Numbered from the stretch's first letter, positions 6,965 to 64,000 are shown. The stretch is DNA of 64,000 nucleotides from Escherichia coli (GCF_013315695.1 NZ_CP054353.1), one strand, 5' to 3'. Made by a program: numbers and translations. Notes: generated from the sequence alone by a model not told the origin.

Positions 6965-7040
6965 TTCTCGCTCAAACAGGTCACTGCTGTCGGGGTAAAA
7001 CCCGGCAGCGGATTGTGCTAACTCCGACGGGAGCAAATCC

Positions 7041-41717: not shown

Positions 41718-45401
<3,684 letters not shown>

Positions 45402-45620: not shown

Positions 45621-47252
45621 GTGTTAACGCTGCTTCACCTGCTTTCTGCCGTCGCCCTGCTGGTCTGGGGGACTCATATTGTTCGAACCGGCGTAATGCG
45701 CGTCTTCGGCGCGCGTCTGCGTACTGTTCTTAGCCGAAGCGTCGAAAAGAAGCCGCTCGCCTTTTGCGCGGGGATAGGCGTTACCGCACTGGTGCAGAGC
45801 AGTAATGCCACCACCATGCTGGTGACCTCGTTTGTCGCTCAGGATCTGGTAGCCCTCGCACCGGCTCTGGTGATTGTGCTGGGTGCAGATGTCGGGACGG
45901 CGCTAATGGCGCGTATTCTCACCTTCGATTTATCCTGGCTGTCACCGTTACTTATTTTTATCGGCGTGATTTTTTTCCTCGGACGCAAACAGTCACGCGC
46001 CGGGCAACTGGGCCGCGTCGGTATTGGTCTTGGGCTGATTTTGCTGGCGCTGGAGTTGATTGTGCAGGCCGTAACGCCGATCACCCAGGCAAACGGCGTT
46101 CAGGTGATCTTTGCCTCGCTGACCGGCGATATTCTGCTGGATGCGCTGATTGGCGCGATGTTCGCCATTATCAGCTACTCCAGCCTTGCTGCTGTACTGC
46201 TGACCGCGACTCTGACCGCCGCAGGCATTATCTCCTTCCCCGTGGCGCTCTGTCTGGTGATTGGTGCTAACCTCGGTTCCGGTCTGCTGGCGATGCTCAA
46301 CAACAGTGCCGCCAATGCCGCAGCCCGCCGTGTCGCGCTGGGTAGCCTGCTGTTTAAGCTGGTGGGTAGCCTGATTATCCTGCCGTTTGTCCATTTGCTG
46401 GCAGAGACAATGGGGAAGTTGCCACTGCCAAAAGCGGAACTGGTGATCTATTTCCACGTCTTCTACAACCTTGTACGCTGCCTGGTCATGCTGCCATTTG
46501 TTGACCCGATGGCACGGTTTTGCAAAACGATTATTCGCGATGAACCGGAACTGGATACCCAGCTACGACCCAAACATCTGGATGTCAGCGCGCTGGATAC
46601 GCCCACGCTTGCTCTGGCGAACGCCGCGCGCGAAACCCTGCGCATTGGCGACGCCATGGAACAGATGATGGAAGGGTTGAATAAAGTGATGCACGGCGAG
46701 CCACGGCAGGAGAAAGAGCTGCGTAAGCTGGCAGATGATATCAACGTTCTCTACACCGCCATTAAGCTGTATCTGGCGCGAATGCCAAAAGAGGAACTGG
46801 CAGAAGAAGAGTCGCGCCGCTGGGCGGAGATCATCGAAATGTCGCTCAACCTTGAACAGGCCTCCGATATCGTCGAGCGCATGGGCAGCGAAATTGCCGA
46901 CAAATCGCTGGCTGCAAGGCGAGCATTTTCGCTTGATGGTTTGAAGGAACTGGATGCGCTCTATGAGCAATTGCTCAGTAATTTAAAACTGGCAATGTCG
47001 GTTTTCTTCTCTGGCGATGTTACCACCGCCCGTCGTTTGCGCCGTAGCAAACATCGTTTTCGCATTCTTAATCGCCGCTATTCCCATGCCCACGTCGATC
47101 GCCTGCATCAGCAAAACGTGCAAAGCATTGAAACCAGTTCGCTACATTTAGGCTTACTGGGAGATATGCAGCGTCTGAACTCGCTGTTTTGTTCGGTGGC
47201 TTACAGTGTGCTGGAACAGCCGGATGAAGACGAAGGACGGGACGAGTATTAA
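45621..47252 (+). CDS. yjbB: Na/Pi cotransporter family membrane protein YjbB
   Basis: 543 aa polytopic N-terminal half plus PhoU-like C-terminal half; position after metH. Confidence 0.9.
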   Translation: MLTLLHLLSAVALLVWGTHIVRTGVMRVFGARLRTVLSRSVEKKPLAFCAGIGVTALVQSSNATTMLVTSFVAQDLVALAPALVIVLGADVGTALMARILTFDLSWLSPLLIFIGVIFFLGRKQSRAGQLGRVGIGLGLILLALELIVQAVTPITQANGVQVIFASLTGDILLDALIGAMFAIISYSSLAAVLLTATLTAAGIISFPVALCLVIGANLGSGLLAMLNNSAANAAARRVALGSLLFKLVGSLIILPFVHLLAETMGKLPLPKAELVIYFHVFYNLVRCLVMLPFVDPMARFCKTIIRDEPELDTQLRPKHLDVSALDTPTLALANAARETLRIGDAMEQMMEGLNKVMHGEPRQEKELRKLADDINVLYTAIKLYLARMPKEELAEEESRRWAEIIEMSLNLEQASDIVERMGSEIADKSLAARRAFSLDGLKELDALYEQLLSNLKLAMSVFFSGDVTTARRLRRSKHRFRILNRRYSHAHVDRLHQQNVQSIETSSLHLGLLGDMQRLNSLFCSVAYSVLEQPDEDEGRDEY

Positions 47253-47261
47253 TACCGTGAC

Positions 47262-47337
47262 CCTGTAGGCCTGATAAGACGCGTAAAGCGTCGCATCAGG
47301 CACGATGAACAAGATGCCGGATCATGCATCCGGCAAT
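47262..47337. repeat. REP element pair
   Basis: CTGTAGGCCTGATAAGACGCGTAAAGCGTCGCATCAGGCA and GATGCCGGATCATGCATCCGGCAA between yjbB and pepE. Confidence 0.8.
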
Positions 47338-47341
47338 TCAT

Positions 47342-48031
47342 TTAAAAACGGTGACCCGCTTCCAGCGGAACCGCTTCTTCACCAGCCTTAAATACATAAG
47401 TGGTGTTCGGGCCACCCAGCGTAGCGTGACCTTTACTTACTGTGATCCAGTTACCTTCCGGCAGACCAATAATCGTCAGTTCTGGCGCGACGACCAGCAG
47501 TTCGCGAATACGCTGCTCACGCGTTTCACCTTTATGGCCTTCCGGCAGCGCGTTGGTGAAGTGCGGGTTGATTTGCAACGGGAACAGATTCAGCGCATCG
47601 AAACCTTGCGGATCGACAATCGGCATATCGTTGGTGGTACGAATGGTTGGGCAAGCAAGGTTAGCGCCTGCGCTCCAGCCAATATACAGCGCGCCACGTT
47701 TCACCACGTCAGTAATTGGTGCCAGCAGCCCGCGCTCGCGGCACTGTTTCAGCAACTGGAAAGTATTACCGCCGCCGACAATCACGATCTCAGCATTTTC
47801 AATCGCGGCAACGGGATCGACAACGCTATGAATACCGGTGACAGAAACACCCAGCGGAGCGAGAACCGCAGCCGTTTTCGCTGTGTAATCATCCCAGGTC
47901 TGCGTTACGCCAGCGAAAGGAATAAATACCGCTGAGCGGCGACCCTGCAACTGTTCAGCAATCAGCGGCAGCGCGTGTTCCAGCCAGGCTTTACCCGGCA
48001 GCGTCGAGTTACTCAATAAAAGCAGTTCCAT
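47342..48031 (-). CDS. pepE: Dipeptidase E (alpha-aspartyl dipeptidase)
   Basis: 229 aa [57 protein letters not shown]. Confidence 0.95.
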
Positions 48032-48153
48032 TACTTCTCCGGTTAGTAAGAAATCACGGGAGCCATGCTACCACTGTGATTTTAACCGCTTACTGACATG
48101 GCTCACGATGTTGCGCATTGCTTCTGGCGTGGCAAACAAGGCGCTGATGTTTC

Positions 48154-48966
48154 TTATCCTTCTCGTGCAAATTGTGCCGCCTCAGCAATCAGTTGCGCAT
48201 CAGGCCGTACGCCGGTATACATTGCGAACTGCTCGACGGCCTGTAAAGCAATCACCTCCGCACCGCTAATCGTCTGCTTATCAAGCCGTTGCGCCAGGCG
48301 AATGAGCGGCGTTTCCGGCGGCAAGGCCACGACATCAAAAACGACGCTTGCCGTTGAGACCATCGCTTCGCTGAAGGCCAGCTCATGGCTCTCTTTACCG
48401 CCGCTCATGCCAACGGGCGTCACGTTGACCAGAATGTCGCAGGCGATGCCTTCCGGCTGCGGTTGCCACTGAAACCCATACTGCTTCGCCAGCGCCGGGC
48501 CGCTCTCGCGGTTGCGGGCGGCAATGATAACATCCGTAAACCCCGCGTCGCGAAAGGCGGCAATCACCGCTTTGCCCATGCCGCCACTGCCGCGAATCAT
48601 CACTCGCGTGGTGGTATTGAGCTGGTGGTGGGTAATCAGGCTTTTCACCGCGATATAGTCGGTGTTAAACCCGGTCAGCCTGCCGTCGTCATTCACGATG
48701 GTATTCACGGAATCAATGACCTTCGCCGACGGATCGATCGCGTCGAGAAAAGGCATGCAGCTTTCTTTAAACGGCATCGACACAGCGCAACCGCGAATAC
48801 CCAACGCGCGAACCCCTTTCACCGCCGCTGCAATATCCTGGGTGGTGAACGCTTTATAGATGAAATTCAGCCCCAGCTTTTCATAAAGATAATTGTGAAA
48901 ACGCGTGCCGAAGTTACCGGGGCGGCCGGCCAGCGACATGCAGAGTTGAGTATCGCGATTAATCAT
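48154..48966 (-). CDS. AroE/YdiB-family (shikimate dehydrogenase-like) NAD(P) oxidoreductase, substrate unknown
   Basis: 271 aa from ATG(rc) 48964-48966: MINRDTQLCMSLAGRPGNFGTRFHNYLYEKLGLNFIYKAF...NTDYIA...IRGSGGMGKAV; N-terminal substrate domain, NTD motif and Gly-rich Rossmann loop laid out as in AroE; start overlaps the sorE stop (ATGATTAA). Confidence 0.75.
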   Translation of the reverse strand: MINRDTQLCMSLAGRPGNFGTRFHNYLYEKLGLNFIYKAFTTQDIAAAVKGVRALGIRGCAVSMPFKESCMPFLDAIDPSAKVIDSVNTIVNDDGRLTGFNTDYIAVKSLITHHQLNTTTRVMIRGSGGMGKAVIAAFRDAGFTDVIIAARNRESGPALAKQYGFQWQPQPEGIACDILVNVTPVGMSGGKESHELAFSEAMVSTASVVFDVVALPPETPLIRLAQRLDKQTISGAEVIALQAVEQFAMYTGVRPDAQLIAEAAQFAREG

Positions 48967-50188
48967 GGGAAATCGCCTCTGCATGGGCGAGCAGGTACTG
49001 CTCCGCCTCGCCAGACCAGACTCCCTGATGACGCGCCAGAATCGCCGCCAGTTCTTCATCCTGAATCTGCGTGAGTGATGTCAGCGGCAGATATTTCCCG
49101 GTATACACCAGTTTTTTCCCGCCGCCGACGGCAGGCAATTCAAGCGTGGTTTCGCCCGCGGCATTCAGCCCAAGAATATGTGTTACCACTTTTGCGGCCT
49201 GCACTTTTTTCTCTTCAATCAATTTGACCGCTGCGCGCATGTCGTCGGTATTGCCGCCTGACGTGCCTACGTAGTGGGTAAATGCATAATGCACATCGTA
49301 GAAATTAATTGGCGCGCTGAAGTGCTTATCCTGCGGTCCGGCGAAGAAATTCAGGCAACCATCTGTCGCCAGCAAGGAAGAGGCGAGAGTCACCAGTCCT
49401 TCATTAGGCACAAAGACGAAAATATCATCGAAGCCGTGACCGCCACTCAGCGCCATTAACGTATCAAATGCTGCATCGGTGGCATTGAGATAATGAATCA
49501 GTGTTTGCGGTTCTGATGGATAGTGCTTGCGCGCATAACTCAATTTGTCGTTGTCGGTATCGGTAATGACGAGCAGCGAAGGGTTAACGGGTCCATGTAG
49601 CGCATAATCAATCGCCAACAGTCCCATTGGTCCGGTGCCGCCGAGGATCAGCGTGCGCCCTTGCGGGCGAATCCCCATCGTGTGGTTATAACTACCTTCC
49701 TGAAGATGATAGTTGGCGTTGAACGCGCCAATCACGCAGGAAAGCGGTTCAACCAGCGAGCCTTCAAAATAGGTTTCGCCGTCGTATGCCAGCAGGCAAT
49801 CTTGTTCCATGACCTCGTTGGGAATAACCACATGCGTCGCTTCGCCGCCTACCCACGGGAAGGAGTAGCCGGGGCAGTCCGGGCGGTCGGGGAGTTGCAG
49901 GTTGGCCTGAATCACATAACGCTGACCCGGCTGGAATTTGTGCTGCCACTTTTTACCCACGGCCAGAATATCGCCGCAAAATTCGTGGCCGATGATGATG
50001 GGATTGGTCGCCACATCGTCGGGTACTTTTTTATGGTTTTCCCCCAGATTGGCCTCTTTCCAGGAAGAGAGGCACAGGCTGTCAGTGACCACCGTCGCGA
50101 GGATTTCATCCTCCTGCATTTCAGGAAGGTCAAAGGTTTCCAGACGCAGGTCACGTTTGCCATAAAGACGCAGAGCTGTTGTTTTCAT
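48959..50188 (-). CDS. sorE: Sorbose-1-phosphate reductase (Zn-dependent MDR dehydrogenase)
   Basis: About 409 aa (MKTTALRLYGKRDLRLETFDL...), zinc-ADH fold motifs GHEFCGDI and LILGGTGPMG; last gene of the sor-type PTS cluster; start ambiguous (track ORF 48959..50200). Confidence 0.75.
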   Translation of the reverse strand: MKTTALRLYGKRDLRLETFDLPEMQEDEILATVVTDSLCLSSWKEANLGENHKKVPDDVATNPIIIGHEFCGDILAVGKKWQHKFQPGQRYVIQANLQLPDRPDCPGYSFPWVGGEATHVVIPNEVMEQDCLLAYDGETYFEGSLVEPLSCVIGAFNANYHLQEGSYNHTMGIRPQGRTLILGGTGPMGLLAIDYALHGPVNPSLLVITDTDNDKLSYARKHYPSEPQTLIHYLNATDAAFDTLMALSGGHGFDDIFVFVPNEGLVTLASSLLATDGCLNFFAGPQDKHFSAPINFYDVHYAFTHYVGTSGGNTDDMRAAVKLIEEKKVQAAKVVTHILGLNAAGETTLELPAVGGGKKLVYTGKYLPLTSLTQIQDEELAAILARHQGVWSGEAEQYLLAHAEAISHD

Positions 50189-50239
50189 AAACCACCTCAT
50201 GTTGAGCGATGACCCCGGCAGTCGTGCCGGGGCGAAGAA

Positions 50240-51064
50240 TCAGGACAGGAAGCCCAGCGCATTACCGATAATCCCTAAACCAAACAGGGCGAAAATCAGC
50301 CATACCGGGTTAATTTTTTTGTTGAGCAGACGTACCATCAGCAGCGTCAAACCGAGCGCCAGCAATCCAGGGCAAAGCTGGTCGAGAATGTTCTGTACGG
50401 TCATAGTGACGGTGGCACCATCGGCGGCAGGCGTTTGTGAAACCACTAACGGCACGTTGATCGATGTCCATTTGGTCACCAGTACGCCCATTACAAACAG
50501 CCCGAGAATCGACGCGCCTTCGGTCAGTTTTTGCAGCAAATTACCGCCCATATCGCTGACGATATTCACCCCTTTACGAAAGCCCAGTTGCAGCCCATAC
50601 CATTTCATTGCCAGACGTACTGCATTGAAAATAAAGAAGAACAGCAGGGGGCCGAGAATGTTGCCCGAAAGTGCCAGAGATGCGCCGAGCGCGGCGGTAA
50701 TCGGGCGCAGCGTTCCCCAGACCAGTGGATCGCCAACACCTGCCAACGGTCCCATCAGGCCGACTTTGATGCCGTTAATGGTACCGTCATCAATTTCCGC
50801 GCCGTTGGCTCGCGCCTCTTCCATGGCGGCAGTGACGCCGATGACCGGGCCACATACGGCTGGCGTGGTATTGAAGAACACCAGGTGTCGCCTGAGCGCC
50901 GCAACTTGATCCTCTTTTAATGGGTAAAGTCGTTTGATGGCGGGGATCATGTCGTAGCAAAAACCCAGCCCGTGAATACGTTCAAAGTTAAAGGATGCCT
51001 GTTGCAGGTTGGAGCGCAGAAACATGCTCACCAGATCGCTGCGTGTAATTTTTCTCTGTTCCAT
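50240..51064 (-). CDS. sorM: PTS sorbose (mannose-family) EIID component
   Basis: About 274 aa (MEQRKITRSDLVSMFLRSNLQQASFNFERIHGLGFCY), characteristic EIID-Man N-terminus; alternative start 51094. Confidence 0.8.
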   Translation of the reverse strand: MEQRKITRSDLVSMFLRSNLQQASFNFERIHGLGFCYDMIPAIKRLYPLKEDQVAALRRHLVFFNTTPAVCGPVIGVTAAMEEARANGAEIDDGTINGIKVGLMGPLAGVGDPLVWGTLRPITAALGASLALSGNILGPLLFFFIFNAVRLAMKWYGLQLGFRKGVNIVSDMGGNLLQKLTEGASILGLFVMGVLVTKWTSINVPLVVSQTPAADGATVTMTVQNILDQLCPGLLALGLTLLMVRLLNKKINPVWLIFALFGLGIIGNALGFLS

Positions 51065-51074
51065 GATGGCTCCG

Positions 51075-51872
51075 TTAATCATCAAGTTGGTCAAGGGCGG
51101 TGATAGTGGTGGTCTGGGGATGTGGTTCAGCTTTACGCCACTGTGGATTTAACTGGATGTAGAGCAGGGCCATGATCACGCCGACGCCACCGAACGCCAG
51201 CAGACTGAGATCGAGGTAGCCACCTGCGAGGAAACCGAGGAAAAAGAAAGGCATCAAATATTTCACGCCCATCATGCGAAGCACCATGGCGTAACCGACC
51301 ACCACGATAAAACCGCCAGCAATCTGCAGCCCACGGGTCACAAATTCGGGAATGGCGCTCAGCATATTGCTCACCATATCAGCGCTGACGAACAGCGAGA
51401 CAATCAGTGCCGGAATAGCAACGCGCAGTGCCTGCACGCCAAGCGCGGAGACATGCAGAATATCGAGAGTGCGAAACCGTGCTTCTTCCGCTGCTTTATC
51501 CGCCGCGTGCTGGAACACTACGGTGATGGTACGGGCAAACACCGTCAGCACCTGGCCTGCCGCAGCCACAGGCAACGCGATGGCGATTCCGGTGGCGATG
51601 CTTTGCTGACCAACGATAACCAGAATGGCGGAGATTATGCTGGCGAGTGCAGAATCCGGAGATTGCGCCGCGCCGACGTTCATCCAGCCGAGAGCTATCA
51701 ATTCCAGCGTACCACCGAGCATAATTCCGGTTTTTAAATCACCGAGAATTAAACCAATCACCGTACAGGCAATTAACGGACGATGAGTCTGAAATTCATC
51801 CAGCACGCTGCCCATTCCGGCAATACAGGAAAAAAGAAATATAGCAATAATTTGTAGGGTACTTATTTCCAT
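51075..51872 (-). CDS. sorA: PTS sorbose EIIC component
   Basis: 265 aa polytopic membrane protein MEISTLQIIAIFLFSCIAGMGSVLDEFQTHRPLIACTVIGLILGDLKTGIMLGGTLELIALGW (EIIC-Man family). Confidence 0.8.
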   Translation of the reverse strand: MEISTLQIIAIFLFSCIAGMGSVLDEFQTHRPLIACTVIGLILGDLKTGIMLGGTLELIALGWMNVGAAQSPDSALASIISAILVIVGQQSIATGIAIALPVAAAGQVLTVFARTITVVFQHAADKAAEEARFRTLDILHVSALGVQALRVAIPALIVSLFVSADMVSNMLSAIPEFVTRGLQIAGGFIVVVGYAMVLRMMGVKYLMPFFFLGFLAGGYLDLSLLAFGGVGVIMALLYIQLNPQWRKAEPHPQTTTITALDQLDD

Positions 51873-51937
51873 GATTTGTCACCTTTTAAGTGTCGTCATC
51901 CCTGCCTGTTAAAGCATATGTACACAGGCGCTATTAT

Positions 51938-52432
51938 TTAATTTGCGATTAACTGTTCGTTTATTTTGTCGATAATATTGATTGAGGGATCTGACGCTAC
52001 GACGCGTAAATCCAGTATGACGCCAAGATTATTTAACTCATGAAATGCGTTAATATCATCGTCATCTAATGAAACTGCTTTGGTTAACTGTTTCTTACCA
52101 GGACGCCAGGCCATACCGCCAATATTCAGGGTACCTATTTTTACCCCCTGGCGAACCATTGCTAAGGCATCTTGTGGGCGAGTGAAAAGATAAAAAACGG
52201 TTTCGTCCTGATATTGCGGGTTGTGATAAACCGCGACGGCTTTTTCAATATTGACCACGTTAACCTTCATTCCCGGTGGCGCAGCCTGACGCAATAATGT
52301 CCGGCGAACTTCATCGTTATAAACTTCGTCATTGCAGATAATAATGCGTTGGGCGTTAGCCACTTTAGACCAGACGGTAGTGACCTGGCCGTGGATCAGG
52401 CGGTCATCAATGCGGGCGAGCGTAATGTTCAT
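51938..52432 (-). CDS. sorB: PTS sorbose EIIB component
   Basis: 164 aa MNITLARIDDRLIHGQVTTVWSK, EIIB-Man phosphohistidine motif. Confidence 0.82.
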   Translation of the reverse strand: MNITLARIDDRLIHGQVTTVWSKVANAQRIIICNDEVYNDEVRRTLLRQAAPPGMKVNVVNIEKAVAVYHNPQYQDETVFYLFTRPQDALAMVRQGVKIGTLNIGGMAWRPGKKQLTKAVSLDDDDINAFHELNNLGVILDLRVVASDPSINIIDKINEQLIAN

Positions 52433-52839
52433 CAGAAATCCTCCTCCGCTGTTGCCACCTGTCTCCAGACGACGCAGATTTGCTTTGCGATTTGCGTCAG
52501 GTGTTCACACAGTTCATCAATATTCATGCTGTCCTGGTTATCAACCAGTTCGAGCGCCAGCGGCAGAGAAAGGCCGCTGATTACCCGCAGACGAGGATTG
52601 CGCATCGCAAGCATCGCTGCCGCATTCCACGGGCTGCCGCACTGTAAATCCACGGCAATCAGCCACTCATCTTGATTGTGAATGCTTGCTAACTTTTCCA
52701 GCTTTGCTACGATGTCTCCGGCGTTCTCGCCGGGCACAAATTCAACGGCCTCGACCCTGGCATCGCCGTACACCATCTGAACCGATTCCAGCATGGCGCA
52801 AGCTAATTTGCCATGGGCGCAAAAAATGGCATTGACCAT
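52432..52839 (-). CDS. sorF: PTS sorbose EIIA component
   Basis: 135 aa MVNAIFCAHGKLACAMLESVQMVYGD, EIIA-Man with conserved His near N-terminus. Confidence 0.82.
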   Translation of the reverse strand: MVNAIFCAHGKLACAMLESVQMVYGDARVEAVEFVPGENAGDIVAKLEKLASIHNQDEWLIAVDLQCGSPWNAAAMLAMRNPRLRVISGLSLPLALELVDNQDSMNIDELCEHLTQIAKQICVVWRQVATAEEDF

Positions 52840-52848
52840 AAAGCCTCC

Positions 52849-53655
52849 TTAGCCGCGCGTTTTGCCGCCCGCAATGTTAGTGGTTACTCCGGTGATATAG
52901 CTGGCGCGTTCAGACAGCAGATAACAAACAAAATCAGCCACTTCTGCTAATCTTCCGGCGCGCCCAATAGGAATGGCGTTTTTGGTATAGCCTTCACGCA
53001 GCTGCTCGACGGTGATATTGCGCGTCCACGCCAGCGCTTCTTCATATTCCGGCGTGCGCAGTCCTGTTTTTTCCAGAATCCCCGGCGCGATACCGACCAC
53101 ACGGATACCGTGCTTACCCAGTTCTTTCGACCAGGAGCGAGTGAAGCTATTGAGCGCAGCTTTAGTGGCGGCGTAGCAGCTCTGGCCTTCTGAGCCTTCC
53201 AGCCCACTTTCTGAGGAAACATTCACAATCACGCCATCGTGTTGTTTGACCATCTGTCGCGCCACCGCCTGCGACATCAGAAAAACGCCTTTCTGGTTGA
53301 TATTGACCATTTTTTCGAATGCAGCTTCGTTGAGTTCATACTGCCCGGCAGGCGCTTTCTCATCGACCAGCAGACGCGGGAAATTGACCCCGGCGTTATT
53401 GACCAGACCGTCGATGCGACCAAAACGCTGGATAATTTCTGCTACCGTATGATTTACCTCTTTGGCGCTGGAAATATCGGTCGGCCAAAACTGATAGCCT
53501 TTATGACCTTCATATTGTCCATCGCCACCGTGAATATCGACCATCTGTACATTCGCGCCTTGTGCTAATAATTCATCCACAATCGCCAGACCAATGCCGG
53601 ATGCGCCACCGGTGACAATAATGATTTTATCCTGCAAATTTAACCACGTTTGCAT
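52849..53655 (-). CDS. sorD: Short-chain dehydrogenase (D-glucitol-6-phosphate dehydrogenase type)
   Basis: 268 aa MQTWLNLQDKIIIVTGGASGIGLAIV... (TGxxxGIG), SDR catalytic YAATK. Confidence 0.8.
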   Translation of the reverse strand: MQTWLNLQDKIIIVTGGASGIGLAIVDELLAQGANVQMVDIHGGDGQYEGHKGYQFWPTDISSAKEVNHTVAEIIQRFGRIDGLVNNAGVNFPRLLVDEKAPAGQYELNEAAFEKMVNINQKGVFLMSQAVARQMVKQHDGVIVNVSSESGLEGSEGQSCYAATKAALNSFTRSWSKELGKHGIRVVGIAPGILEKTGLRTPEYEEALAWTRNITVEQLREGYTKNAIPIGRAGRLAEVADFVCYLLSERASYITGVTTNIAGGKTRG

Positions 53656-53724
53656 AACAGACTCCTGATTTTAGATAATAGGGACCCGCCGTAATTTTTA
53701 TTACGGTAAACATCGGGAAGATTT

Positions 53725-54672
53725 TTATTTCAGTAATAGTTCAGCTGTGCTGCTATTCGTTACCAGACAATTAATATATTTTCCACGCAGTGCACCAACA
53801 ATTCCGCTGTATTTTTCTTCACTCATGGCAATGCCAATGGAATATCGTGCCTGCTTTAATTTATTCATTTCGATAGAGAGTGTTTTTTCGCTCATATTCG
53901 TTTCAACCATTGCGCCGTGAATATCAAAAAAGCGCGAGCAAATATCGCCAGCAACCTGGCGGGCATTCAGGTCGTCACTCTCTTCACCACCATAAAACGC
54001 ATGCCAGTTAGCGCCGTCGCGAATGGCCGGTGAGCCAATTCCCACCAGGGCGACATCCAGATTATCCCAGTAGGCAGAGATGGTTTTAAAGTGCTGAGAC
54101 TGCATGATCCCATTACGAATTAATGGGTTATCCAGCAGAGCCGGAAAATCCGCGAGATGCGATTCCCCTTTCAACTTCGCTGCCGCGCTGTAGGTTAATG
54201 TGTTTACATGATAGCGGCTTTCGAGTTTACCGGACGGTCCGCCAATAATTGGTACGCAGATTAACTGCCGCGATTGCCCCGCCTGCGGCAAGTTTTCAAC
54301 CAGTGCGCTCACCGCGCGGCCCCAGGAAAAACCAACAATATCGCCAGGTTCCAGCAAGCGATCCAGCAGTTGCGCGCCGTGTAACCCCATCATCGCCAGT
54401 TGAGTCTCTTCATCCTCATCATTTCCCGACACCACCACAACGTCTTTCAGGCCAAACTTTTGCTTCAGTTGCTGCTCCAGCCAGAGATTTTCGTTGTAGT
54501 CATAGTTGATGGCGATGGTGACAATTCCCTGATCGCGGCCTCGTTTAAGCAAGCGGCTGATGGTGGTGCGGTAAATACCCAGTTCGCGCGCGATTTGCGC
54601 CTGCGTCATATCCTGTTCGTAATAGAGTTGGGCAATCTTCACAATCAAACGGATATCGTCACTGTTTTCCAT
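53725..54672 (-). CDS. sorC: SorC-family transcriptional regulator of the sorbose operon
   Basis: 315 aa from ATG(rc) 54670-54672 (MENSDDIRLIVKIAQLYYEQDMTQAQIARELGIYRTTISRLLKRGRDQGIV), N-terminal HTH plus sugar-phosphate binding domain; first gene of the cluster. Confidence 0.8.
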   Translation of the reverse strand: MENSDDIRLIVKIAQLYYEQDMTQAQIARELGIYRTTISRLLKRGRDQGIVTIAINYDYNENLWLEQQLKQKFGLKDVVVVSGNDEDEETQLAMMGLHGAQLLDRLLEPGDIVGFSWGRAVSALVENLPQAGQSRQLICVPIIGGPSGKLESRYHVNTLTYSAAAKLKGESHLADFPALLDNPLIRNGIMQSQHFKTISAYWDNLDVALVGIGSPAIRDGANWHAFYGGEESDDLNARQVAGDICSRFFDIHGAMVETNMSEKTLSIEMNKLKQARYSIGIAMSEEKYSGIVGALRGKYINCLVTNSSTAELLLK

Positions 54673-55019
54673 TGCCGCCTCCTGGTTCTGCACATTTGTG
54701 CAAATACGCTTTCTCACCGCTTGATCTGATATAACCCCATCATGATGGCCTTTCAAAGCGATTTTTCACTCTTTGCATGGGGGGAAATAGCGCTTTCTCT
54801 TGCACATTTGTTTCTCTGCGTAGTAGTCATCAGCACAGGTGTGCAGCGATTCGTAATATGTTGATTATCCTTATTTTGCCAGGCAAATTTGCATCGTACT
54901 TCCGGAGACACTTTTGTGATAAAAGGCGTGGCAGATCACATTTAATTTCGACGTTGCCGCATAACCCTGTTTTTCCCCGCTAAGAGGTACGGTATATTCC
55001 GCGTTTTACAGGAGAATTT

Positions 55020-55892
55020 ATGCTGCCCGACTCATCAGTCCGTTTAAATAAATACATCAGCGAAAGCGGAATTTGCTCACGCCGCGAAGCGGATCGCTAT
55101 ATCGAGCAAGGCAATGTGTTCCTTAATGGCAAGCGAGCCACCATTGGCGATCAGGTGAAACCCGGCGACGTTGTGAAAGTAAACGGTCAGTTGATTGAGC
55201 CTCGGGAAGCCGAAGATTTGGTACTTATCGCCCTGAACAAGCCCGTCGGTATTGTCAGCACCACCGAAGATGGCGAGCGCGATAACATTGTCGATTTCGT
55301 TAACCACAGCAAACGCGTGTTCCCGATTGGCCGCCTGGATAAAGACTCCCAGGGGCTGATTTTCCTCACCAATCACGGCGATCTGGTGAATAAGATCCTC
55401 CGTGCGGGTAACGATCATGAGAAAGAGTATTTGGTGACGGTTGATAAACCGATTACCGATGAATTTATTCGTGGTATGGGGGCGGGAGTGCCGATCCTCG
55501 GGACGGTGACGAAAAAGTGCAAAGTCAAAAAAGAAGCGCCGTTTGTCTTCCGCATTACCCTGGTGCAGGGGCTGAACCGTCAGATCCGTCGCATGTGCGA
55601 GCACTTTGGTTACGAAGTGAAAAAGCTGGAACGTACGCGCATTATGAACGTCAGTTTAAGCGGCATTCCGCTGGGTGAGTGGCGCGATTTAACCGACGAT
55701 GAGTTAATCGACCTCTTTAAGCTCATCGAAAATTCCTCTTCCGAGGCAAAACCTAAAGCGAAGGCCAAACCGAAAACGGTAGGCATCAAACGTCCAGTCG
55801 TCAAGATGGAAAAAACGGCGGAAAAAGGCGGTCGCCCGGCGTCCAACGGTAAGCGTTTTACCTCGCCGGGGCGAAAAAAGAAGGGACGTTAA
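55020..55892 (+). CDS. rluF: 23S rRNA pseudouridine synthase RluF
   Basis: 290 aa; S4 domain N-terminus and pseudouridine synthase motif [21 protein letters not shown]; Lys-rich tail. Confidence 0.94.
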
Positions 55893-56165
55893 TCAGCGCC
55901 TGCCGCGCGTCGACGTATTTGCTGACCAGCTAAATGACGCCTCAGGATCCGGTTTATAAGCCTGCTTTTTCTTCAATTGGCGGGCTTTTTTCGCTTCAGC
56001 CTCACGCTCGACCATTAATTTATCGATGTACTCTTTCTTAATGCTGTTGGTTTCGGAGTTGGTCAGTACGCGACCATGCGCAATCCGCGCCCGATCCAGC
56101 AATGTTTTAAGTTCACGCTGCTCGCGTTCAGTCATCTCTTTTTGGGTAATACGGGGGAGTGCCAT
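55893..56165 (-). CDS. yjbD: DUF3811 family protein YjbD
   Basis: 90 aa MALPRITQKEMTEREQRELKTLLDRARIAHGRVLTNSETNSIKKEYIDKLMVEREAEAKKARQLKKK. Confidence 0.85.
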   Translation of the reverse strand: MALPRITQKEMTEREQRELKTLLDRARIAHGRVLTNSETNSIKKEYIDKLMVEREAEAKKARQLKKKQAYKPDPEASFSWSANTSTRGRR

Positions 56166-56378
56166 GATGGTGCCCTCAGTGAGCCAGAGAGTTCAGTGTA
56201 CGGGAATTCGTTTGCGAGCAGAACTGATAATATTCCTTTGTTCCCTTCTTAAATATCTATCTTTCTTGATAATTGACGATAAATACAGATAAAAATTTAG
56301 CAAAAAGTTTTCCCCCTACAAACAACAGTAATTCATTAACTCTTTATTTTTCATTTGGTTAATGGTTTTTCTCAATTC

Positions 56379-56394
56379 TGGCACGCTTCTCGCA
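56379..56394 (+). promoter_or_regulatory. Putative sigma54 (-24/-12) promoter upstream of the SPFH gene
   Basis: TGGCACGCTTCTCGCA: matches TGGCACG-N4-TTGCW with one mismatch (C for T at -14); GG and GC separated by 10 nt; about 300 nt upstream of the SPFH start. Confidence 0.45.
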
Positions 56395-56693
56395 ATAACA
56401 CTTTTGCGTTGATACTGAATTTCAAAGGGGATTAAACCCCGTCGGCACACCAGGAACGGCCAGGCTGTTTTCCGGGCGTGTTCCGTCAGCCTTTGACGCT
56501 AATTACGGGTTCGATTCCCGAATTCATTCCTGAAATGAATACTGGTTGTAACTTATTAAATAAAAAATGGGGGATTGCGCAGTCAGCGATCCCCGATAAC
56601 GTCGCCGATAAAGACGCCGGGATACAGGCAAAAGGGAATTCCCCTGTCTCTTCGTGTCTGCTTCCGCGACGGCTGTTAAGCAAGGAATAGATA

Positions 56694-57821
56694 ATGATTA
56701 AGAAAATAAGCGTAAGAAAAGATCAGCTGGCATTACTCTCCAGAAATGGCGATTACTACAAAGTGCTGCATGCAGGCGAGCATCTTTTACCCTGGTTAAA
56801 TACGCCAGAAGTCTTGCTGATTACGCTCGATGGCAGCGAAGTTCCCGACGTGCTGGCGGATTATTTGCGCCGCTTTCAGCCTGATTGGGTGGAAAGATAT
56901 TGCGTGGTGGCCGACTTGTCGGAGACTGAAGCCGGGGCGTTGTATATGGACGGTATTTTGCTGGAGATCCTGCCGCCATCAACGCGTCGTTTGTACTGGC
57001 GTGTAGAGGATGATTTGACGCTGGTGCGGATGAATACGCAGCAAGTCCAGGTTCAAACGGAGGTGATGAATGCGGTATTGCAGCCACGGCGCAAAGGGAC
57101 TGTTAAAGGCCGCGATGCGATACTGACGGTGCAGGTTCCGGCCTGGCACGTAGGTGTACTGAAAATCGATGGTGAAACGCAGGCGCTGTTACCGCCGGGG
57201 CTGACTGCGTACTGGAAAATTAACCATCTGGTTGAAGCTGAAGTGGTTGACACCCGCTTGCAGGTACTGGAAGTCAGTGGGCAAGAAATCTTAACGAAAG
57301 ATAAGGTCAATCTGCGGATTAATCTCGCCGCTAACTAGCGCTACAGCGACGTGTTATTGGCATTTAGTCAGTTAACGAAGCCGATTGATCATTTGTATCG
57401 GGAATTGCAATTTGCACTGCGTGAAGCGGTAGGTACGCGTACGCTGGATGAGTTGCTGGAAGATAAACAAGTCATTGATGACGTTGTCAGCGAACAGGTG
57501 AAATCGCGTATGTTGCCATTTGGTATGGAGATTGCTTCATTAGGGGTGAAAGATATCGTCCTGCCTGGCGATATGAAAAATATCCTTGCGCAGCTGGTTG
57601 AGGCGGAGAAATCCGCGCAGGCCAATGTGATTCGTCGACGTGAAGAAACGGCAGCGACGCGTTCGTTACTCAATACCGCTAAAGTCATGGAAAACAACCC
57701 GGTGGCGTTACGCTTAAAAGAACTGGAAACGCTGGAGAGAGTGGCTGAGCGGATCGATAACATCTCTGTATTTGGTGGTCTGGATCAGGTTCTGCACGGG
57801 TTAGTGAATATCAAAGGATGA
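56694..57821 (+). pseudogene. SPFH/band-7 domain protein, interrupted by in-frame TAG at 57339-57341
   Basis: Track ORFs 56694..57338 and 57351..57821 are in the same frame, separated only by the TAG; the joined product (...TKDKVNLRINLAAN*RYSDVLLAFSQ...LLEDKQVIDDVVSEQVKSRMLPFGMEIASLGVKDIVLPGDMKNILAQLVEAEKSAQANVIRRREE) has a stomatin/prohibitin-type SPFH domain spanning the stop. Confidence 0.7.
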
Positions 57822-57933
57822 GTCAAATGCCATTAAATGGAGTCAGTGCTGCGATGCGCGAACGGGTATCGCAGCAGTTAAAAGAAATAGAACGTCGCTA
57901 TGGCGTGAAAGTGCTGTACGCCTGCGAATCAGG

Positions 57934-57945
57934 CAGCCGCGGCTG
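57934..57945. repeat. IS4 target-site duplication, left copy
   Basis: CAGCCGCGGCTG immediately 5' of the IS4 terminus TAATGCC. Confidence 0.85.
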
Positions 57946-59371
57946 TAATGCCAGTCAGTTAAGCAACTGACTGGCTCTTTTTCGGGGCTGTGGGGTATTT
58001 CCAGGGCCTCTCCTTTACCACTCTCGGGAAGGCCCTTTCCCTTCTTGTCGGTAATTTCACAAGTTGTCCCATACTTGCAAGATCGCGCATCAGCTCCGGT
58101 ATACGTCCCGGTGAAGCGCCCTGCAATGTCATCAGCATTCTCATCACCATTCCGCATGATTCTGAGAAACTCAGTTGATTCGGCCAGTAACCTTTCAGAT
58201 GTTCCGCCATTTTAATCATCTGATATCTCACCAGATTATAAGCCAGTAAGACACCCCACAGCTCTTGCTCCACAAGCTCCGGTTTTTTACTTCTCAGCGT
58301 CAGCCTGCTCAGTTGCATCGTCTGTTTTATCTCCCTGTATCCCAGTTCGATTTCCCAGCGATGACTGTACAGATCCGCCATTTCTCCTCCGGGGAAGCGC
58401 ATGGCGTCCGTCATCGACGTCAGCAGATGGCAGACTTTTCCTTTGCGCGTCACGGTCAGCAGGCGGGCTGTCACTTCATTTCCCAGTCCCGGCCACTTTT
58501 TTCGTGCCTGCGGGCTGGTTTTCAGCTTCACCAGATGATCGCCTTTACCCAGTTTTCTGATCTCTTCATATTGCGCTCCCTTTCTGAGAGGTATCATCCA
58601 GTGGCGGTGTTCTCCCGCCAGGCTCCAGGCATTTAACAGTCCCAGTGAGTAATAACCTTTATCCATTAACGTCAGAGTGTTATCGCCGGTTTGTTCTATA
58701 AGTTGCTCAGCAAGCTCATTTTCGCTGTTCTTCATCGTGCCGAAGGCTGCAGCCGTCAGCAGATGGCTGGTCAGTTCCATCTGGCAGACCATTTTGACCT
58801 GCGGGTAGAGCGCCGGGTTCCCGGCATGTGTCTGGCGGGGGAAGGCTGCATCGTTCTCTGGTGTATCCGGTGTGCGCCAGAACACACCATCGATGGCCAG
58901 CAGGGTCAGGCCGCACCAGTGCGGATGCGGCGTGGCGTTATGCCAGAGCTGCGCTGTTTTCGTGAACACGCGGCGGACAGCCTCACTTCCCAGGCGCTGG
59001 CGGGCCTGAATAACGGCACTGGGGGCAACGAAGGGGCGATTGCCCGGCAGCATGATGTCCAGGCGATTCACAATCTGGTGAAGAGGTTCTTTACGCTCAA
59101 GCGCCATGCCAACAATACACCAGACCATCATTTCGAGGGGAAGACGGCGCTTGCGTAGCGTTACAGTACCTGATTCGGCAAGGCAACGAGAGATGAGTTC
59201 GGGGTCGAGGTAATCCCCCAGAGAAGTCAGTGGGTTACGCAGAGAATCGTAACGGGATACCAGATCAAGAGCCTGTCCAATGTGCATAAAAAAATCCGGA
59301 AACAAGTGAGCGTTTCCGGATTCTTACACAGCCACTGGATCGGTCAACTGATCCTTAACTGATCGGCATTA
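57946..59371 (-). mobile_element. IS4 insertion sequence (complete, 1426 bp)
   Basis: Terminal inverted repeats TAATGCCAGTCAGTTAAG... and ...CTTAACTGATCGGCATTA; single 442 aa DDE transposase; flanked by a 12 bp direct repeat. Confidence 0.92.
57959..59287 (-). CDS. insG: IS4 transposase
   Basis: 442 aa [63 protein letters not shown]... (IS4 family DDE transposase). Confidence 0.92.
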
Positions 59372-59383
59372 CAGCCGCGGCTG
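59372..59383. repeat. IS4 target-site duplication, right copy
   Basis: CAGCCGCGGCTG immediately 3' of the IS4 terminus. Confidence 0.85.
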
Positions 59384-60170
59384 GGGATTTGCCTCGCCCG
59401 ATAGCGACTACGATGTACGGTTTTTGTATGTCCATCCGCTGGAATGGTATCTGCGTGTAGAGTCACCGCGCGATGTTATCGAGCTGCCCATCGACGACGA
59501 ATTAGATGTTTCCGGTTGGGAGTGGCGTAAGGCGCTGGGATTATTGAAAGGCGCGAATCCGACGCTGATAGAATGGCTGGATTCTCCGGTGGTCTATCAA
59601 CAAGATGAAGAAACGATAACGGCGCTTAAGGCAATGGTCCCAATGTGGTTTTCTTCGTTGCGTGCACGCTGGCATTACTATTCGATGGCGCAGAAAAACT
59701 TCCGCGGCTATTTGCAGGGCGATGAAGTTCGACTGAAAAAATACTTTTACGTGCTGCGCCCGCTGCTGGCCGTGCGCTGGGTCGAAGCGGGTAAAGGCGT
59801 GCCGCCAATGCGCTTTGCTGAGTTACTGGCAGGAAGCGAGCTTGATGCGCCGTTACGCGAAGAGATTGACGAACTGCTGGAGCGTAAACAGCGAGCGGGG
59901 GAGGCGGAATATGGTCCGCGCCGTCCTTTGTTACATGCGTTTATTCGCGCGGAGCTGGCGCGTGGGGAAATTCCACCGATTTTACCGGACAGTCGAGATG
60001 GAGATGTTCGGGAGCTAGATAATTTGCTGTATCAAACGGTAATGCGCCGGGCATAAAGCCCGGCGTGATTTATTGCTGGTATTGCCAACTGCTGACTAAA
60101 GCGTACAAGTGATTTGGTGATGCTGCCAACTTACTGATTTAGTGTATGATGGTGTTTTTGAGGTGCTCCA

Positions 60171-60446
60171 GTGGCTTCTGTTTCTATCAGCTGTCCCTCC
60201 TGTTCAGCTACTGACGGGGTGGTGCGTAACGGCAAAAGCACCGCCGGACATCAGCGCTATCTCTGCTCTCACTGCCGTAAAACATGGCAACTGCAGTTCA
60301 CTTACACCGCTTCTCAACCCGGTACGCACCAGAAAATCATTGATATGGCCATGAATGGCGTTGGATGCCGGGCAACAGCCCGCATTATGGGCGTTGGCCT
60401 CAACACGATTTTACGTCACTTAAAAAACTCAGGCCGCAGTCGGTAA
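60171..60446 (+). CDS. insA: IS1 InsA
   Basis: 91 aa [43 protein letters not shown]... zinc-finger/HTH protein of IS1. Confidence 0.93.
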
Positions 60447-60868
60447 CCTCGCGCATACAGCCGGGCAGTGACGTCATCGTCTGCGCGGAAATGGACGAAC
60501 AGTGGGGCTATGTCGGGGCTAAATCGCGCCAGCGCTGGCTGTTTTACGCGTATGACAGGCTCCGGAAGACGGTTGTTGCGCACGTATTCGGTGAACGCAC
60601 TATGGCGACGCTGGGGCGTCTTATGAGCCTGCTGTCACCCTTTGACGTGGTGATATGGATGACGGATGGCTGGCCGCTGTATGAATCCCGCCTGAAGGGA
60701 AAGCTGCACGTAATCAGCAAGCGATATACGCAGCGAATTGAGCGGCATAACCTGAATCTGAGGCAGCACCTGGCACGGCTGGGACGGAAGTCGCTGTCGT
60801 TCTCAAAATCGGTGGAGCTGCATGACAAAGTCATCGGGCATTATCTGAACATAAAACACTATCAATAA
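60365..60868 (+). CDS. insB: IS1 InsB reading frame (expressed as InsAB' by -1 frameshift)
   Basis: -1 frame relative to insA; ...[78 protein letters not shown] slippery run in the insA/insB overlap. Confidence 0.9.
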
Positions 60869-60921
60869 GTTGGAGTCATTACCAATAGCGTCGTGGGTCG
60901 CTATTCACCTCTACTGATCGT

Positions 60922-62271
60922 TTACTCAAACAAATTAAAATGCAGCTTCTGCACCACCTGCTCGGCATCTTCGCCGGGCACCAGGAAGCACAGGTTATGG
61001 CTGGATGCGCCGTAACAAATCATGCGAATGTTGAACGGTTCCAGTACGCCGAATACCTCTTTGCCAACGCCGCAGGCTTTTGACAGGTCATTGCCAATCA
61101 ACGCGACCAGCGCCAGCCCCTCTTCCACTTCCACCCGGCACAGTGCGGAAAGCTCCATCAGCAGGGATTGCGTCAGCAAGGTATCGCCAGTGGAGGTTGA
61201 ACCGGTGGTATCAAGGGTTAATGCCACGCTCACTTCTGACGTGGTGATTAAGTCTACCGAAATATTATGCCGCGCGAGGATGCCGAAAACTTCCGCGAGG
61301 AAACCGCGAGAATGCAGCATATTCAGGCTGTGCAAAGTGAGCAGGGTCTGATTGCGACGAAGCGCCAGCGCGCGGAACAGCGGCGGATTTTCAGTTTTAT
61401 TGCACACCAGCGTACCACCTGCGCGTGGGTCTTTGCTGGAGCCGACAAAGACCGGGATATCGCTGCGTACTGCGGGTAGCAACGTTGCCGGATGCAGTAC
61501 TTTTGCACCAAAAGTTGCCATCTCTGCCGCTTCGGCAAACGCGATTTCATCAATGCGTTTTGCTGCGGAAACCACGCGTGGATCGGTGGTGTAGATGCCC
61601 GGGACGTCGGTCCAGATATCAACACGAGATGCGTGTAAAGCCTCCGCCAGCAAGGCTGCCGTATAATCGCTGCCTCCACGGCCAAGCGTCGTTGTACGAC
61701 CTTTATTTTCGCTACCGATAAATCCCTGGGTGATCACTAAGCCTTCATTGAGGCGTGGGAGCAGCTGCAGCGCGGTCAGTTCCGCCAGCGCGGCTACATC
61801 TGGCTCTGCACGACCAAATCGGTCGTTGGTACGCATCACTTTACGTACATCAAACCACTGTGCCTGAACATCGCGTTCGCGCAGGATTTCGACAAACAGC
61901 AGGGTCGACATCAGCTCGCCGTGGCTGACCAGTTCATCTGTCAGGGCCGGAGACGTTGCCAGCGCCGCCGCTTCTGCCAGAACAGTAATATTCTCCAGCA
62001 GACGTTCAATCTCTTCACGGATAACGTTCGGGTAACGCAGACGTTCCAGAATGGCAAACTGGATATTGCGGATTGCGTCGAGTTTTTCGAATCGCTCGCC
62101 AGGTTCCAGTCCTTCAGCTAAAGCGACCAGCAGATTAGTGATACCAGCAGAAGCCGAGAGGACAACTAAACGCACGTTGGCATCAGAAAGCACAATATCA
62201 GCGCTGCGGTTCATGGCGTCAAAATCAGCTACGCTGGTACCGCCAAATTTGGAGACAACAATTTCAGACAT
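60922..62271 (-). CDS. lysC: Lysine-sensitive aspartokinase III
   Basis: 449 aa MSEIVVSKFGGTSVADFDAMNRSADIVLSDANVRLVVLSASAGITNLLVALAEG...; C-terminal ACT domains. Confidence 0.96.
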   Translation of the reverse strand: MSEIVVSKFGGTSVADFDAMNRSADIVLSDANVRLVVLSASAGITNLLVALAEGLEPGERFEKLDAIRNIQFAILERLRYPNVIREEIERLLENITVLAEAAALATSPALTDELVSHGELMSTLLFVEILRERDVQAQWFDVRKVMRTNDRFGRAEPDVAALAELTALQLLPRLNEGLVITQGFIGSENKGRTTTLGRGGSDYTAALLAEALHASRVDIWTDVPGIYTTDPRVVSAAKRIDEIAFAEAAEMATFGAKVLHPATLLPAVRSDIPVFVGSSKDPRAGGTLVCNKTENPPLFRALALRRNQTLLTLHSLNMLHSRGFLAEVFGILARHNISVDLITTSEVSVALTLDTTGSTSTGDTLLTQSLLMELSALCRVEVEEGLALVALIGNDLSKACGVGKEVFGVLEPFNIRMICYGASSHNLCFLVPGEDAEQVVQKLHFNLFE

Positions 62272-62299
62272 AACTACCTCGTGTCAGGGGATCCATTTT

Positions 62300-62560
62300 C
62301 AGCCTTGGCACAAGGGAAGAGCGGAAGACGGGTGGGCGCAGAGCGATACTTCGCTACTATTTTCACCCAGAAGTGCTCCACCACTTGCGAAACGCCCGAC
62401 TGCGAACGCTTCTGGTGACAACCCAGGGGATTCAGCCCCTGTAGCCGATGATGAACGTGGCCAGCCGTTCAATCACCTCGGCGATGCACCCCCTCAGGTG
62501 TTATCACAGGACTGGCTCCTCCAACACCGTTACTTGGGCAACGCGCCTCTTCTGGCCTGC
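62300..62560 (-). promoter_or_regulatory. Lysine riboswitch (L box) in lysC leader
   Basis: Long structured leader upstream of lysC; reverse strand contains ...AGAGGCGCGTTGCCCAAG... and ...GGTGCATCGCCGAGGTGATTGAACGG..., consistent with L-box conserved segments; exact ends not determined. Confidence 0.6.

Positions 62561-62741: not shown

Positions 62742-64000
<1,259 letters not shown>

Follow-up and report, generated by a model that had tools for sequence, protein, structure and literature searches.

The interval between the core genes pepE and lysC of Escherichia coli was analyzed in a stretch of 64,000 nucleotides (GCF_013315695.1, NZ_CP054353.1), here called the window. In this interval, the core gene pair rluF-yjbD is bracketed by two blocks, a sor (L-sorbose) operon on the pepE side and, on the lysC side, an islet with genes for an SPFH protein (slipin) and a nucleotidyltransferase (rlaP) that is rich in insertion sequences (IS). 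Both blocks are missing in K-12, and an earlier note had interpreted the interval as an insertion hotspot with repeated gain and loss. Our comparisons make it likely that the interval instead represents ancestral enterobacterial synteny under differential loss. Because of outgroup synteny, co-divergence with the flanks and slipin relics, we infer that presence is ancestral and that K-12 would have lost both blocks; each change would then be a loss rather than a gain. In addition, there are a few genuine small insertions on the lysC side.

Synteny, co-divergence and population states of the two blocks

The outgroup comparison comprised 80 species representatives anchored on RluF with 10-kb flanks, in which genes were mapped by tblastn; 64 of these were assessable. 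The rluF-yjbD pair is kept in 69 of the 80 loci. A full sor operon is located directly upstream of rluF in 19 of the 64 assessable representatives (one Escherichia about 91% identical to E. coli, Pseudocitrobacter, six Citrobacter, five Klebsiella, four Raoultella and one Enterobacter). Five sor genes are seen in the Escherichia locus E69 before the left flank ends, and in Kluyvera only a sorC-like gene and the shikimate-dehydrogenase-like gene that accompanies the operon remain. On the other side of the core pair, slipin and/or rlaP are found between yjbD and lysC in 18 of the 64 assessable representatives, which belong to Citrobacter, the Klebsiella oxytoca group, Pseudocitrobacter, Phytobacter, Kosakonia, Superficieibacter and Leclercia. 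The commonest outgroup state of this site is yjbD-panS-lysC, and a short yjbD-lysC spacer was seen only in Escherichia, Salmonella arizonae, one Citrobacter, Yokenella and Pluralibacter. The ketopantoate/pantothenate transporter gene panS (for example L030, 11200-12144) is missing here in every Escherichia or E. coli locus examined.

Both blocks have diverged in step with the flanking core. For 18 taxa, distances over six concatenated genes of the left block (sorE, sorM, sorA, sorD, sorC and the extra gene) were compared with those of rluF plus lysC, giving r = 0.92 and a mean ratio of 0.99. Between E. coli and 14 operons from Citrobacter, Klebsiella, Raoultella and Enterobacter, the sor/core distance ratio is 0.93-1.01. 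Distances of slipin plus rlaP also correlate with core distances (r = 0.90); in all lineages their rate of evolution is about 1.3 times that of the core, and the E. coli ratios (1.18-1.57) are inside the range of all other pairs.

Relics of the right block were detected where the block itself is absent. The 335-bp yjbD-lysC spacer of E. albertii (L013, 1583-1695) contains two colinear slipin fragments (E = 7e-8 and 4e-4), which are molecular fossils of a lost operon. The yjbD-lysC filler of K-12 retains a 26-nt remnant of the operon leader (E = 9e-4).

The same data bear on a different explanation, in which the E. coli ancestor lacked one or both blocks and, through recombination in the flanks, took them up again from a related genus or Escherichia lineage, with the blocks now spreading. 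Salmonella arizonae and the right site of E. albertii are without the blocks, as this explanation would predict, but the slipin relics of E. albertii indicate that the islet is older than the species split. Escherichia and Pseudocitrobacter sor distances are about half those of the core, and the sor block of the cryptic Escherichia E69 is a mosaic (sorC 99.4% versus sorB 85.5% identical to E. coli); on the other hand, the E. coli sor/core ratio stays at 0.93-1.01 against 14 operons of four genera, a cryptic Escherichia species has sor at core-like divergence, and no closer donor was sampled except Pseudocitrobacter, which is equally close to other Escherichia species. Recombination would also fit the lower identity between window and K-12 in rluF (95.5%) than in the outer flanks (97.5-98.2%), and the difference of 5.4% between the two E. 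coli islet haplotypes, compared with 1.6% for the core. The empty pepE/rluF allele (at least 98.8% identical to K-12 among the matches listed) is less diverse than the sor+ alleles (96.7-100% identical to the window), which argues against such a regain. Overall, we regard homologous replacement as improbable and retain ancestral synteny with differential loss.

Within E. coli, we surveyed 5,426 complete genomes, 5,425 of them with a match at the locus. The sor block is present in 2,868 genomes, always on the chromosome, essentially in single copy and 95-99% identical, and a contiguous K-12-type pepE/rluF junction is present in 2,557. Together these make up all 5,425 matching genomes, i.e. the pepE/rluF site has two states with one type of empty junction (at least 98.8% identical to K-12, among the matches listed). 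No alternative cargo was found at this site in any of the 5,425 genomes. At the yjbD/lysC site, islet DNA occurs in 1,633 genomes (nearly complete in 1,425) and a K-12-type junction in 3,787, a few of which, for example ET76 and SX12, have an IS1 inside. Empty or islet states account for 5,420 of the 5,425 genomes, and five belong to neither class. Islet sub-variants are due to a zeta-toxin-family gene, a phage tail cluster (203 genomes) and IS1/IS4 insertions. Both blocks were found in 711 genomes, only sor in about 2,157, only the islet in about 922 and neither in about 1,635. The IS4 plus IS1 arrangement of the window was present in only 2 of the 5,426 genomes.

An insertion hotspot would imply that the sites flanking rluF-yjbD repeatedly and independently take up unrelated foreign cargo and then lose it, with IS elements as drivers. 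Much of the description behind this proposal proved accurate. The interval (47342-62271) coincides exactly with the annotated ends of pepE and lysC, the 1,146-bp core pair is bracketed by the blocks as described, and these are functionally unrelated to each other and both missing in K-12. The content of the blocks was also given correctly as far as it went, without the eighth gene of the sor block, the RNA repair identity of the islet and a 17.5-kb deletion at IS1. Annotation shows no integrase or site-specific recombinase gene in either block (mobility genes are limited to the transposases of IS4 and IS1), ARAGORN found no tRNA or tmRNA gene in 45000-64000, and a repeat search revealed no att-like direct repeats at the block boundaries, only the target duplication of IS4. 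The earlier note had proposed to compare guanine plus cytosine (GC) content, and neither block deviates from the neighboring core in this respect (sor 51.8%, islet 50.3%, rluF-yjbD 51.1%, whole window 53.0%). Neither block is thus a classical genomic island, as already suggested in that note.

It is the repeated gain at a hotspot that the data do not support. IS4, IS1, the zeta-toxin-family gene and a BcepMu-like cluster have inserted in the right interval, IS1 has entered the empty yjbD/lysC spacer of ET76 and SX12, and toxin-antitoxin pairs are found at the same sites in other genera, all of which a hotspot would explain. Nevertheless, the left site has only two states and a single empty-junction type in 5,425 genomes, other genera have both blocks in synteny, with a divergence that parallels that of the flanks, slipin relics persist in E. 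albertii, GC content is ordinary, att repeats, integrase and tRNA gene are lacking, and the IS configuration of the window is limited to 2 genomes. As regards the two blocks, the hotspot view is largely refuted, and we consider it very unlikely. Outgroups and relics point to K-12 as the derived, deleted state for both blocks, a result that the earlier note had named as speaking against its view, although sor persists in only 53% and the islet in only 30% of E. coli genomes. In the literature searched, no paper names the pepE-lysC interval as a hotspot.

E. coli integration hotspots in the sense of Touchon et al. 2009 and Oliveira et al. 2017 reportedly have many gene families turning over per site and usually integrases or tRNA genes. 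The pepE-lysC interval shares with pan-genome hotspots that it is a short, strain-variable interval between core genes, partly with phage and IS elements on the lysC side. It differs in that only two states exist at the left site, the right site holds a single ancestral module with few add-ons, and the blocks would be vertically inherited operons.

Several observations weigh against a history of inheritance and loss. The Escherichia-Pseudocitrobacter sor/core ratios of 0.54-0.62 are the sole clear outliers in the co-divergence analysis; in Pseudocitrobacter (L012 and L051, sor region about 3100-9650), the sor distance to Escherichia is 0.09-0.11, versus 0.17 for the flanking core. This indicates one putative exchange of the sor block between the two genera by recombination in conserved flanks, and because of these ratios transfer of blocks between genera has to be accepted as something that does happen. 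Partial saturation at nucleotide p-distances near 0.2 weakens the intergeneric co-divergence test. At the family level both blocks are patchy (about 30% of assessable species have sor and about 28% the rtc-type module), so that vertical descent requires many independent losses. The outgroup set covers neither E. fergusonii nor the left side of E. albertii. In the 80-bp filler that K-12 has in place of the sor block, no sor relic was found above shuffled controls; the rluF-proximal part of this filler matches the rluF upstream region of other genera, and about 47 bp are without a match. Some insertions are real: IS1, IS4 and elements resembling repetitive extragenic palindromes (REP) within the interval, the BcepMu-like cluster in 203 E. 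coli genomes, and the zeta-toxin-family gene, found in E. coli alone and at no outgroup locus. Small toxin-antitoxin pairs (RelE/ParE-like with a helix-turn-helix partner, and CcdA/CcdB-like) are located at the pepE/rluF or the yjbD-side site in Citrobacter youngae ATCC 29220 (L032, 7552-9752) and Pseudocitrobacter faecalis (L012, 11344-12035), i.e. small selfish modules do enter these intergenic sites at the family level.

With these reservations, the history of the interval may be outlined as follows. The common ancestor of Escherichia, Citrobacter and Klebsiella/Raoultella would already have had the sor operon and its eighth gene between pepE and rluF, and the block would have been inherited mostly vertically. 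A single deletion allele, of the K-12 type, would have arisen within E. coli, to be found now in 47% of genomes. Since all combinations with the neighboring polymorphism occur, this left allele probably spread by descent and homologous recombination, and recombination is how we infer the empty alleles to have spread. On the right, the ancestral unit would have consisted of panS, rtcR, a divergent sigma-54 promoter, a structured leader, slipin, sometimes rtcB, and rlaP. The Escherichia lineage would have lost panS and rtcR, E. coli would then have gained the zeta-toxin-family gene or, in one lineage, the BcepMu-like phage tail/lysis cluster, and most E. coli strains would later have deleted the rest of the unit. 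The window strain, from an IAI39-type lineage, would represent the last stage of decay, with a nonsense codon in slipin, IS4 in rlaP and an IS1 deletion of the 17.5-kb tail cluster.

Absence from K-12 should therefore not be equated with acquisition, which matters when accessory genes such as sor are read as acquired virulence or fitness traits. The location of sor beside rluF and its absence from MG1655 are already published; the by-products of the analysis, an orphaned RNA repair module and its candidate tRNA-like leader, are more novel.

The sor block and the rluF-yjbD spacers

Gene order in the left block matches the seven-gene sorCDFBAME operon, with a SorC regulator, a short-chain dehydrogenase/reductase, mannose-family EIIA, EIIB, EIIC and EIID components and a sorbose-1-phosphate reductase. 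According to annotation, the products are an L-sorbose phosphotransferase system, sorbose-1-phosphate reductase, glucitol-6-phosphate dehydrogenase and the SorC regulator. All eight reading frames of the block are intact in the window, and function in sorbose use is predicted from them. The seven genes and their order are common to the sorCDFBAME operons of Klebsiella pneumoniae and Sor+ E. coli.

The window strain differs from this known operon in keeping an additional eighth gene, which is shikimate-dehydrogenase-like. Since it shares 8 bp with the 3' end of sorE, it is probably the last gene of the sor operon. The gene adjoins sorE in every sor-bearing outgroup locus whose flank extends that far. 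It is intact in only 176 of the 2,868 sor+ E. coli genomes. In other sor+ strains (N1718 and THO-015 were compared), 701 bp of the gene are missing and a 163-bp insert resembling REP or bacterial interspersed mosaic elements is found instead.

The block has the same chromosomal position as in enteroaggregative E. coli 042, in which sorEMABFDC adjoins rluF, the operon being absent from MG1655 (PMC2808357). Strain differences in sorbose use are a long-known polymorphism, according to references cited in that paper. A 2026 study called the evolutionary origin of sor in clinical E. coli undefined (PMC13410766); the answer suggested here is inheritance with loss, together with one Escherichia-Pseudocitrobacter exchange.

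The spacers around the core pair vary as well. In the window and in several sor+ strains, rluF and yjbD abut stop codon to stop codon. K-12 and KY202 have a GC-rich repeat of about 122 bp, CCCTCGCCCCTTCGGG...GGGTGAGGGG, between the two genes that resembles boxC (in K-12 at L002, 3627-3748, which corresponds to the junction 55892/55893 of the window). The repeat is not strictly tied to the sor state, because it is also carried by EC1515, which is sor+.

The islet and RtcR-type RNA repair operons

Intact islets encode a Band 7/SPFH slipin, an RlaP nucleotidyltransferase (PF10127, E = 8e-95) and, on the opposite strand, a zeta-toxin-family P-loop protein. In E. coli, slipin and rlaP are separated by 5 bp. 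RlaP enzymes extend the 3' ends of damaged RNA by one or two nucleotides, and their genes are typically part of RtcB operons (PMC12776372).

Orthologous loci connect the islet to RNA repair. In Citrobacter, Klebsiella and Phytobacter, slipin-rlaP is preceded by a divergent rtcR (NCBIfam NF038308, RtcR equivalog, 813 bits) and panS. In Citrobacter NCU1 (L014), an rtcB ligase gene between slipin and rlaP was confirmed by sequence, and two further loci (L064 and L067) have a gap of about 1.2 kb between slipin and rlaP at the position of this rtcB. A sigma-54 promoter with the consensus TGGCAC-N5-T(G/C)GCA is present in 18 of 18 loci, including E. coli. The islet promoter, TGGCACGCTTCTCGCA, is of the same type as the rtcBA promoter of E. 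coli, TGGCACGACGGTTGCA. Further upstream, the (GATAA)n region (56258-56295) aligns by position with the sequence that other genera have directly upstream of rtcR, and an enhancer function is possible; direct similarity between the AT-rich spacer of K-12 and the outgroup rtcR-proximal region is not significant (z about 2), and the evidence for correspondence is positional only.

An rtcR survey of the 5,426 E. coli genomes gave essentially one match per genome in 5,423 of them, with 60-80% nucleotide identity and annotated as canonical; the one match that was inspected adjoins rtcB. No adjacent divergent rtcR was found at the E. coli islet in this survey. Because each matching E. coli genome has essentially a single rtcR match, annotated as canonical, the islet is, as far as gene content and promoter can tell, a truncated RtcR-type RNA repair operon without its own activator. 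Residual expression would then depend on the distant canonical RtcR acting in trans.

Comparison with known RtcR-regulated operons shows both shared and distinct features. The promoter type is common to the islet, E. coli rtcR-rtcBA, Salmonella rsr-yrlBA-rtcBA and Pseudomonas rtcB-rlaP-rtcA, a divergent rtcR and sometimes rtcB are found at the orthologous loci of other genera, and an RlaP nucleotidyltransferase is shared with the Pseudomonas operon type. In contrast to the known operons, the islet has neither rtcA nor rsr, its first gene encodes a slipin (an SPFH membrane scaffold), rtcB or the gap corresponding to it is found at only 3 of the orthologous loci, its promoter in E. coli is an orphan with the adjacent rtcR gone, and in the window every component is inactivated. 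The literature searched contained no description of a slipin-RlaP sigma-54 operon or a slipin/RtcB/sigma-54 operon. Anonymous slipin and nucleotidyltransferase genes of about 30% of E. coli genomes can putatively be identified as the remnant of an RNA repair operon with a tRNA-like leader, and the loci offer a natural series of intact, orphaned and decayed RNA repair operons for comparison.

The leader between the sigma-54 promoter and slipin, about 270-300 nt long, is conserved across seven genera. Of the 56 pairs predicted by RNAalifold, 14 show compensatory changes. A T-arm-like hairpin, GGGTTCGATTCCC (56507-56519), with a GGG/CCC stem and the 7-nt T-loop sequence UUCGAUU, is present in 18 of 18 sequences, and its closing pair varies between C-G, U-A and U-G. 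In most of the 18 sequences, per-sequence folds place a covarying hairpin of 5-7 bp (56522-56540 in the window) 3' of the T-arm, with the variants AUUCAU/AUGAAU, UUUCAU/AUGAAA, UUCACU/AGUGAA and UUCGCC/GGUGAA. It is followed in the window by ACTGGTTGT (56541-56549), and a conserved (A)CUGGUUGU follows it in 16 of the 18 sequences; by its sequence, this segment may correspond to a D-arm. In Rfam 15, no family was found beyond chance hits, at E <= 1 in the window or E <= 10 in L014.

The order of these two hairpins and the segment 3' of them resembles the layout of T-arm, acceptor-like stem and D-arm in YrlA, a Y RNA that mimics tRNA and is encoded in the rsr-yrlBA-rtcBA operon of Salmonella (PMC4201824), and both are non-coding tRNA-like elements inside an operon. 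The leader is therefore a candidate YrlA-like tRNA mimic. It differs from YrlA in that no rsr (the Ro60 orthologue) lies beside it, the operons holding only slipin, sometimes rtcB, and rlaP. More speculatively, the leader might be an undescribed, Ro-independent structured RNA that mimics the tRNA elbow (T-arm, closed hairpin and D-loop-like CUGGUUG) and belongs to a slipin-RlaP branch of RtcR-controlled RNA repair in Enterobacteriaceae, surviving without its own rtcR in roughly a quarter of E. coli and switchable in trans by canonical RtcR; this is a tentative proposal that we hold to be possible and no stronger. An origin of the T-arm-like motif as att remnant of a tRNA gene is unlikely, as the motif sits in a 5' leader conserved across genera, beside covarying helices.

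As to the third islet gene, the zeta-toxin/PezT-family protein has 308 amino acids with an N-terminal extension of about 100 amino acids, and its gene is convergent to rlaP (N1718; L003, 12612-13538) and absent from the window. No epsilon/PezA-type antitoxin is annotated beside it. The gene is probably an E. coli-specific addition. PADLOC defence models gave no meaningful match to slipin, RlaP or the zeta-toxin-family protein, and the identification of the islet as a known defence system was set aside on this result.

Insertion sequences, the tail cluster and the gene map

The islet of the window is of the IAI39 type (slipin 98.4% identical), and its decay can be followed by comparison with E. 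coli IAI39 (L009). Codon comparison revealed a nonsense codon in slipin, W215 being changed from TGG to TAG at 57336-57338. IS4 has terminal inverted repeats and is flanked by a 12-bp target duplication, CAGCCGCGGCTG, at 57934-57945 and 59372-59383; the target site is uninterrupted in IAI39. IS4 is thus a simple insertion into rlaP.

In IAI39, the place of the zeta-toxin-family gene next to rlaP is taken by a 17.5-kb cluster (L009, 4206-21801) with genes for sheath, tube, tape measure, baseplate, fibre, lysis and a Mor-type late activator. The sheath protein shows 71-74% identity to its counterparts in BcepMu, KP12 and PhiKM, and the cluster shares tail and lysis genes with BcepMu-like phages. 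As no head, transposase or repressor genes are annotated in it, the cluster is a candidate prophage remnant or tailocin-like cluster. A related tail cluster is present 3' of yjbD in the cryptic Escherichia genome E69 (L011).

IS1 in the window has no target duplication and is flanked by AAGTGATTT and AATAGCGTC. To its left, window positions 59372-60120 match L009 3507-4256, and the first tail-cluster gene of IAI39 is at L009 4206-4661. To its right, 60884-62500 match L009 21802-23418 at 99.7%; the 38 bp at 60884-60921 are identical to the right end of the tail-cluster region in IAI39 and differ from the lysC-proximal sequence of K-12 and N1718, with which homology restarts at 60921/60922. Because the 9-bp duplication is lacking and the two flanks are 17.5 kb apart in IAI39, IS1 bears the signature of an adjacent deletion, in which it replaces L009 4257-21801 (17,545 bp); only end remnants of 44 bp and 38 bp are kept. 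Adjacent deletion is classical IS1 behavior, and with an intact 768-bp element and no 9-bp duplication the case in the window is in no way unusual. An IS1 deletion of the zeta-toxin-family gene, considered from the comparison with N1718, was ruled out, as the IAI39 comparison shows that the ancestor carried the tail cluster.

In 14EC033, IS1 has independently deleted slipin, rlaP and part of the zeta-toxin-family gene. The earlier suggestion that IS elements drive part of the turnover is therefore upheld for the right block (IS4, IS1, 14EC033), with the restriction that such decay, real as it is, is rare and, because only 2 genomes have the arrangement of the window, recent.

The coordinates of the features are given in the table. 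The gene map was carried over from the annotation of the E. coli MSB1_4I record, to which window positions 46500-63000 are 100% identical.

Table. Features of the pepE-lysC interval, in window coordinates
Feature	Position	Strand	Basis and remarks
pepE, left core anchor	47342-48031	-	annotation; conserved in outgroup loci
Left block (sor operon and eighth gene)	48128-54984	-	K-12 breakpoints; K-12 has 80-bp filler instead
Shikimate-dehydrogenase-like gene (AroE/YdiB family)	48154-48966	-	Pfam PF08501, PF01488
sorE	48959-50188	-	annotation
sorM	50240-51064	-	annotation
sorA	51075-51872	-	annotation
sorB	51938-52432	-	annotation
sorF	52432-52839	-	annotation
sorD	52849-53655	-	annotation
sorC	53725-54672	-	annotation
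rluF	55020-55892	+	annotation
yjbD	55893-56165	-	annotation; rluF and yjbD together 1,146 bp
AT-rich (GATAA)n region	56258-56295	+	alignment; K-12 homology extends to 56295
Right block (islet)	56296-60920	.	K-12 breakpoints; K-12 has 121-bp filler instead
Sigma-54 (-24/-12) promoter TGGCACGCTTCTCGCA	56379-56394	+	pattern match; conserved in 18/18 orthologous loci, 7 genera
Structured leader RNA (predicted)	56423-56693	+	alignment, RNAalifold
slipin (SPFH/Band 7) pseudogene	56694-57821	+	Pfam PF01145 on intact orthologue
rlaP (PF10127 nucleotidyltransferase) 5' fragment	57827-57945	+	Pfam RlaP on intact orthologue
IS4, 1,426 bp	57946-59371	-	annotation, IAI39 comparison, repeat search
rlaP 3' fragment	59372-60056	+	annotation, IAI39 comparison
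3'-end relic of first tail-cluster gene (151 aa)	60072-60115	-	IAI39 comparison
IS1A, 768 bp	60116-60883	+	IAI39 comparison
38-bp right-end remnant of tail cluster	60884-60921	.	IAI39 comparison
lysC, right core anchor	60922-62271	-	annotation

Outside the interval, the annotated gene map has yjbB on the pepE side, and a lysine riboswitch upstream of lysC (62363-62559) is annotated in the identical record and is ordinary.

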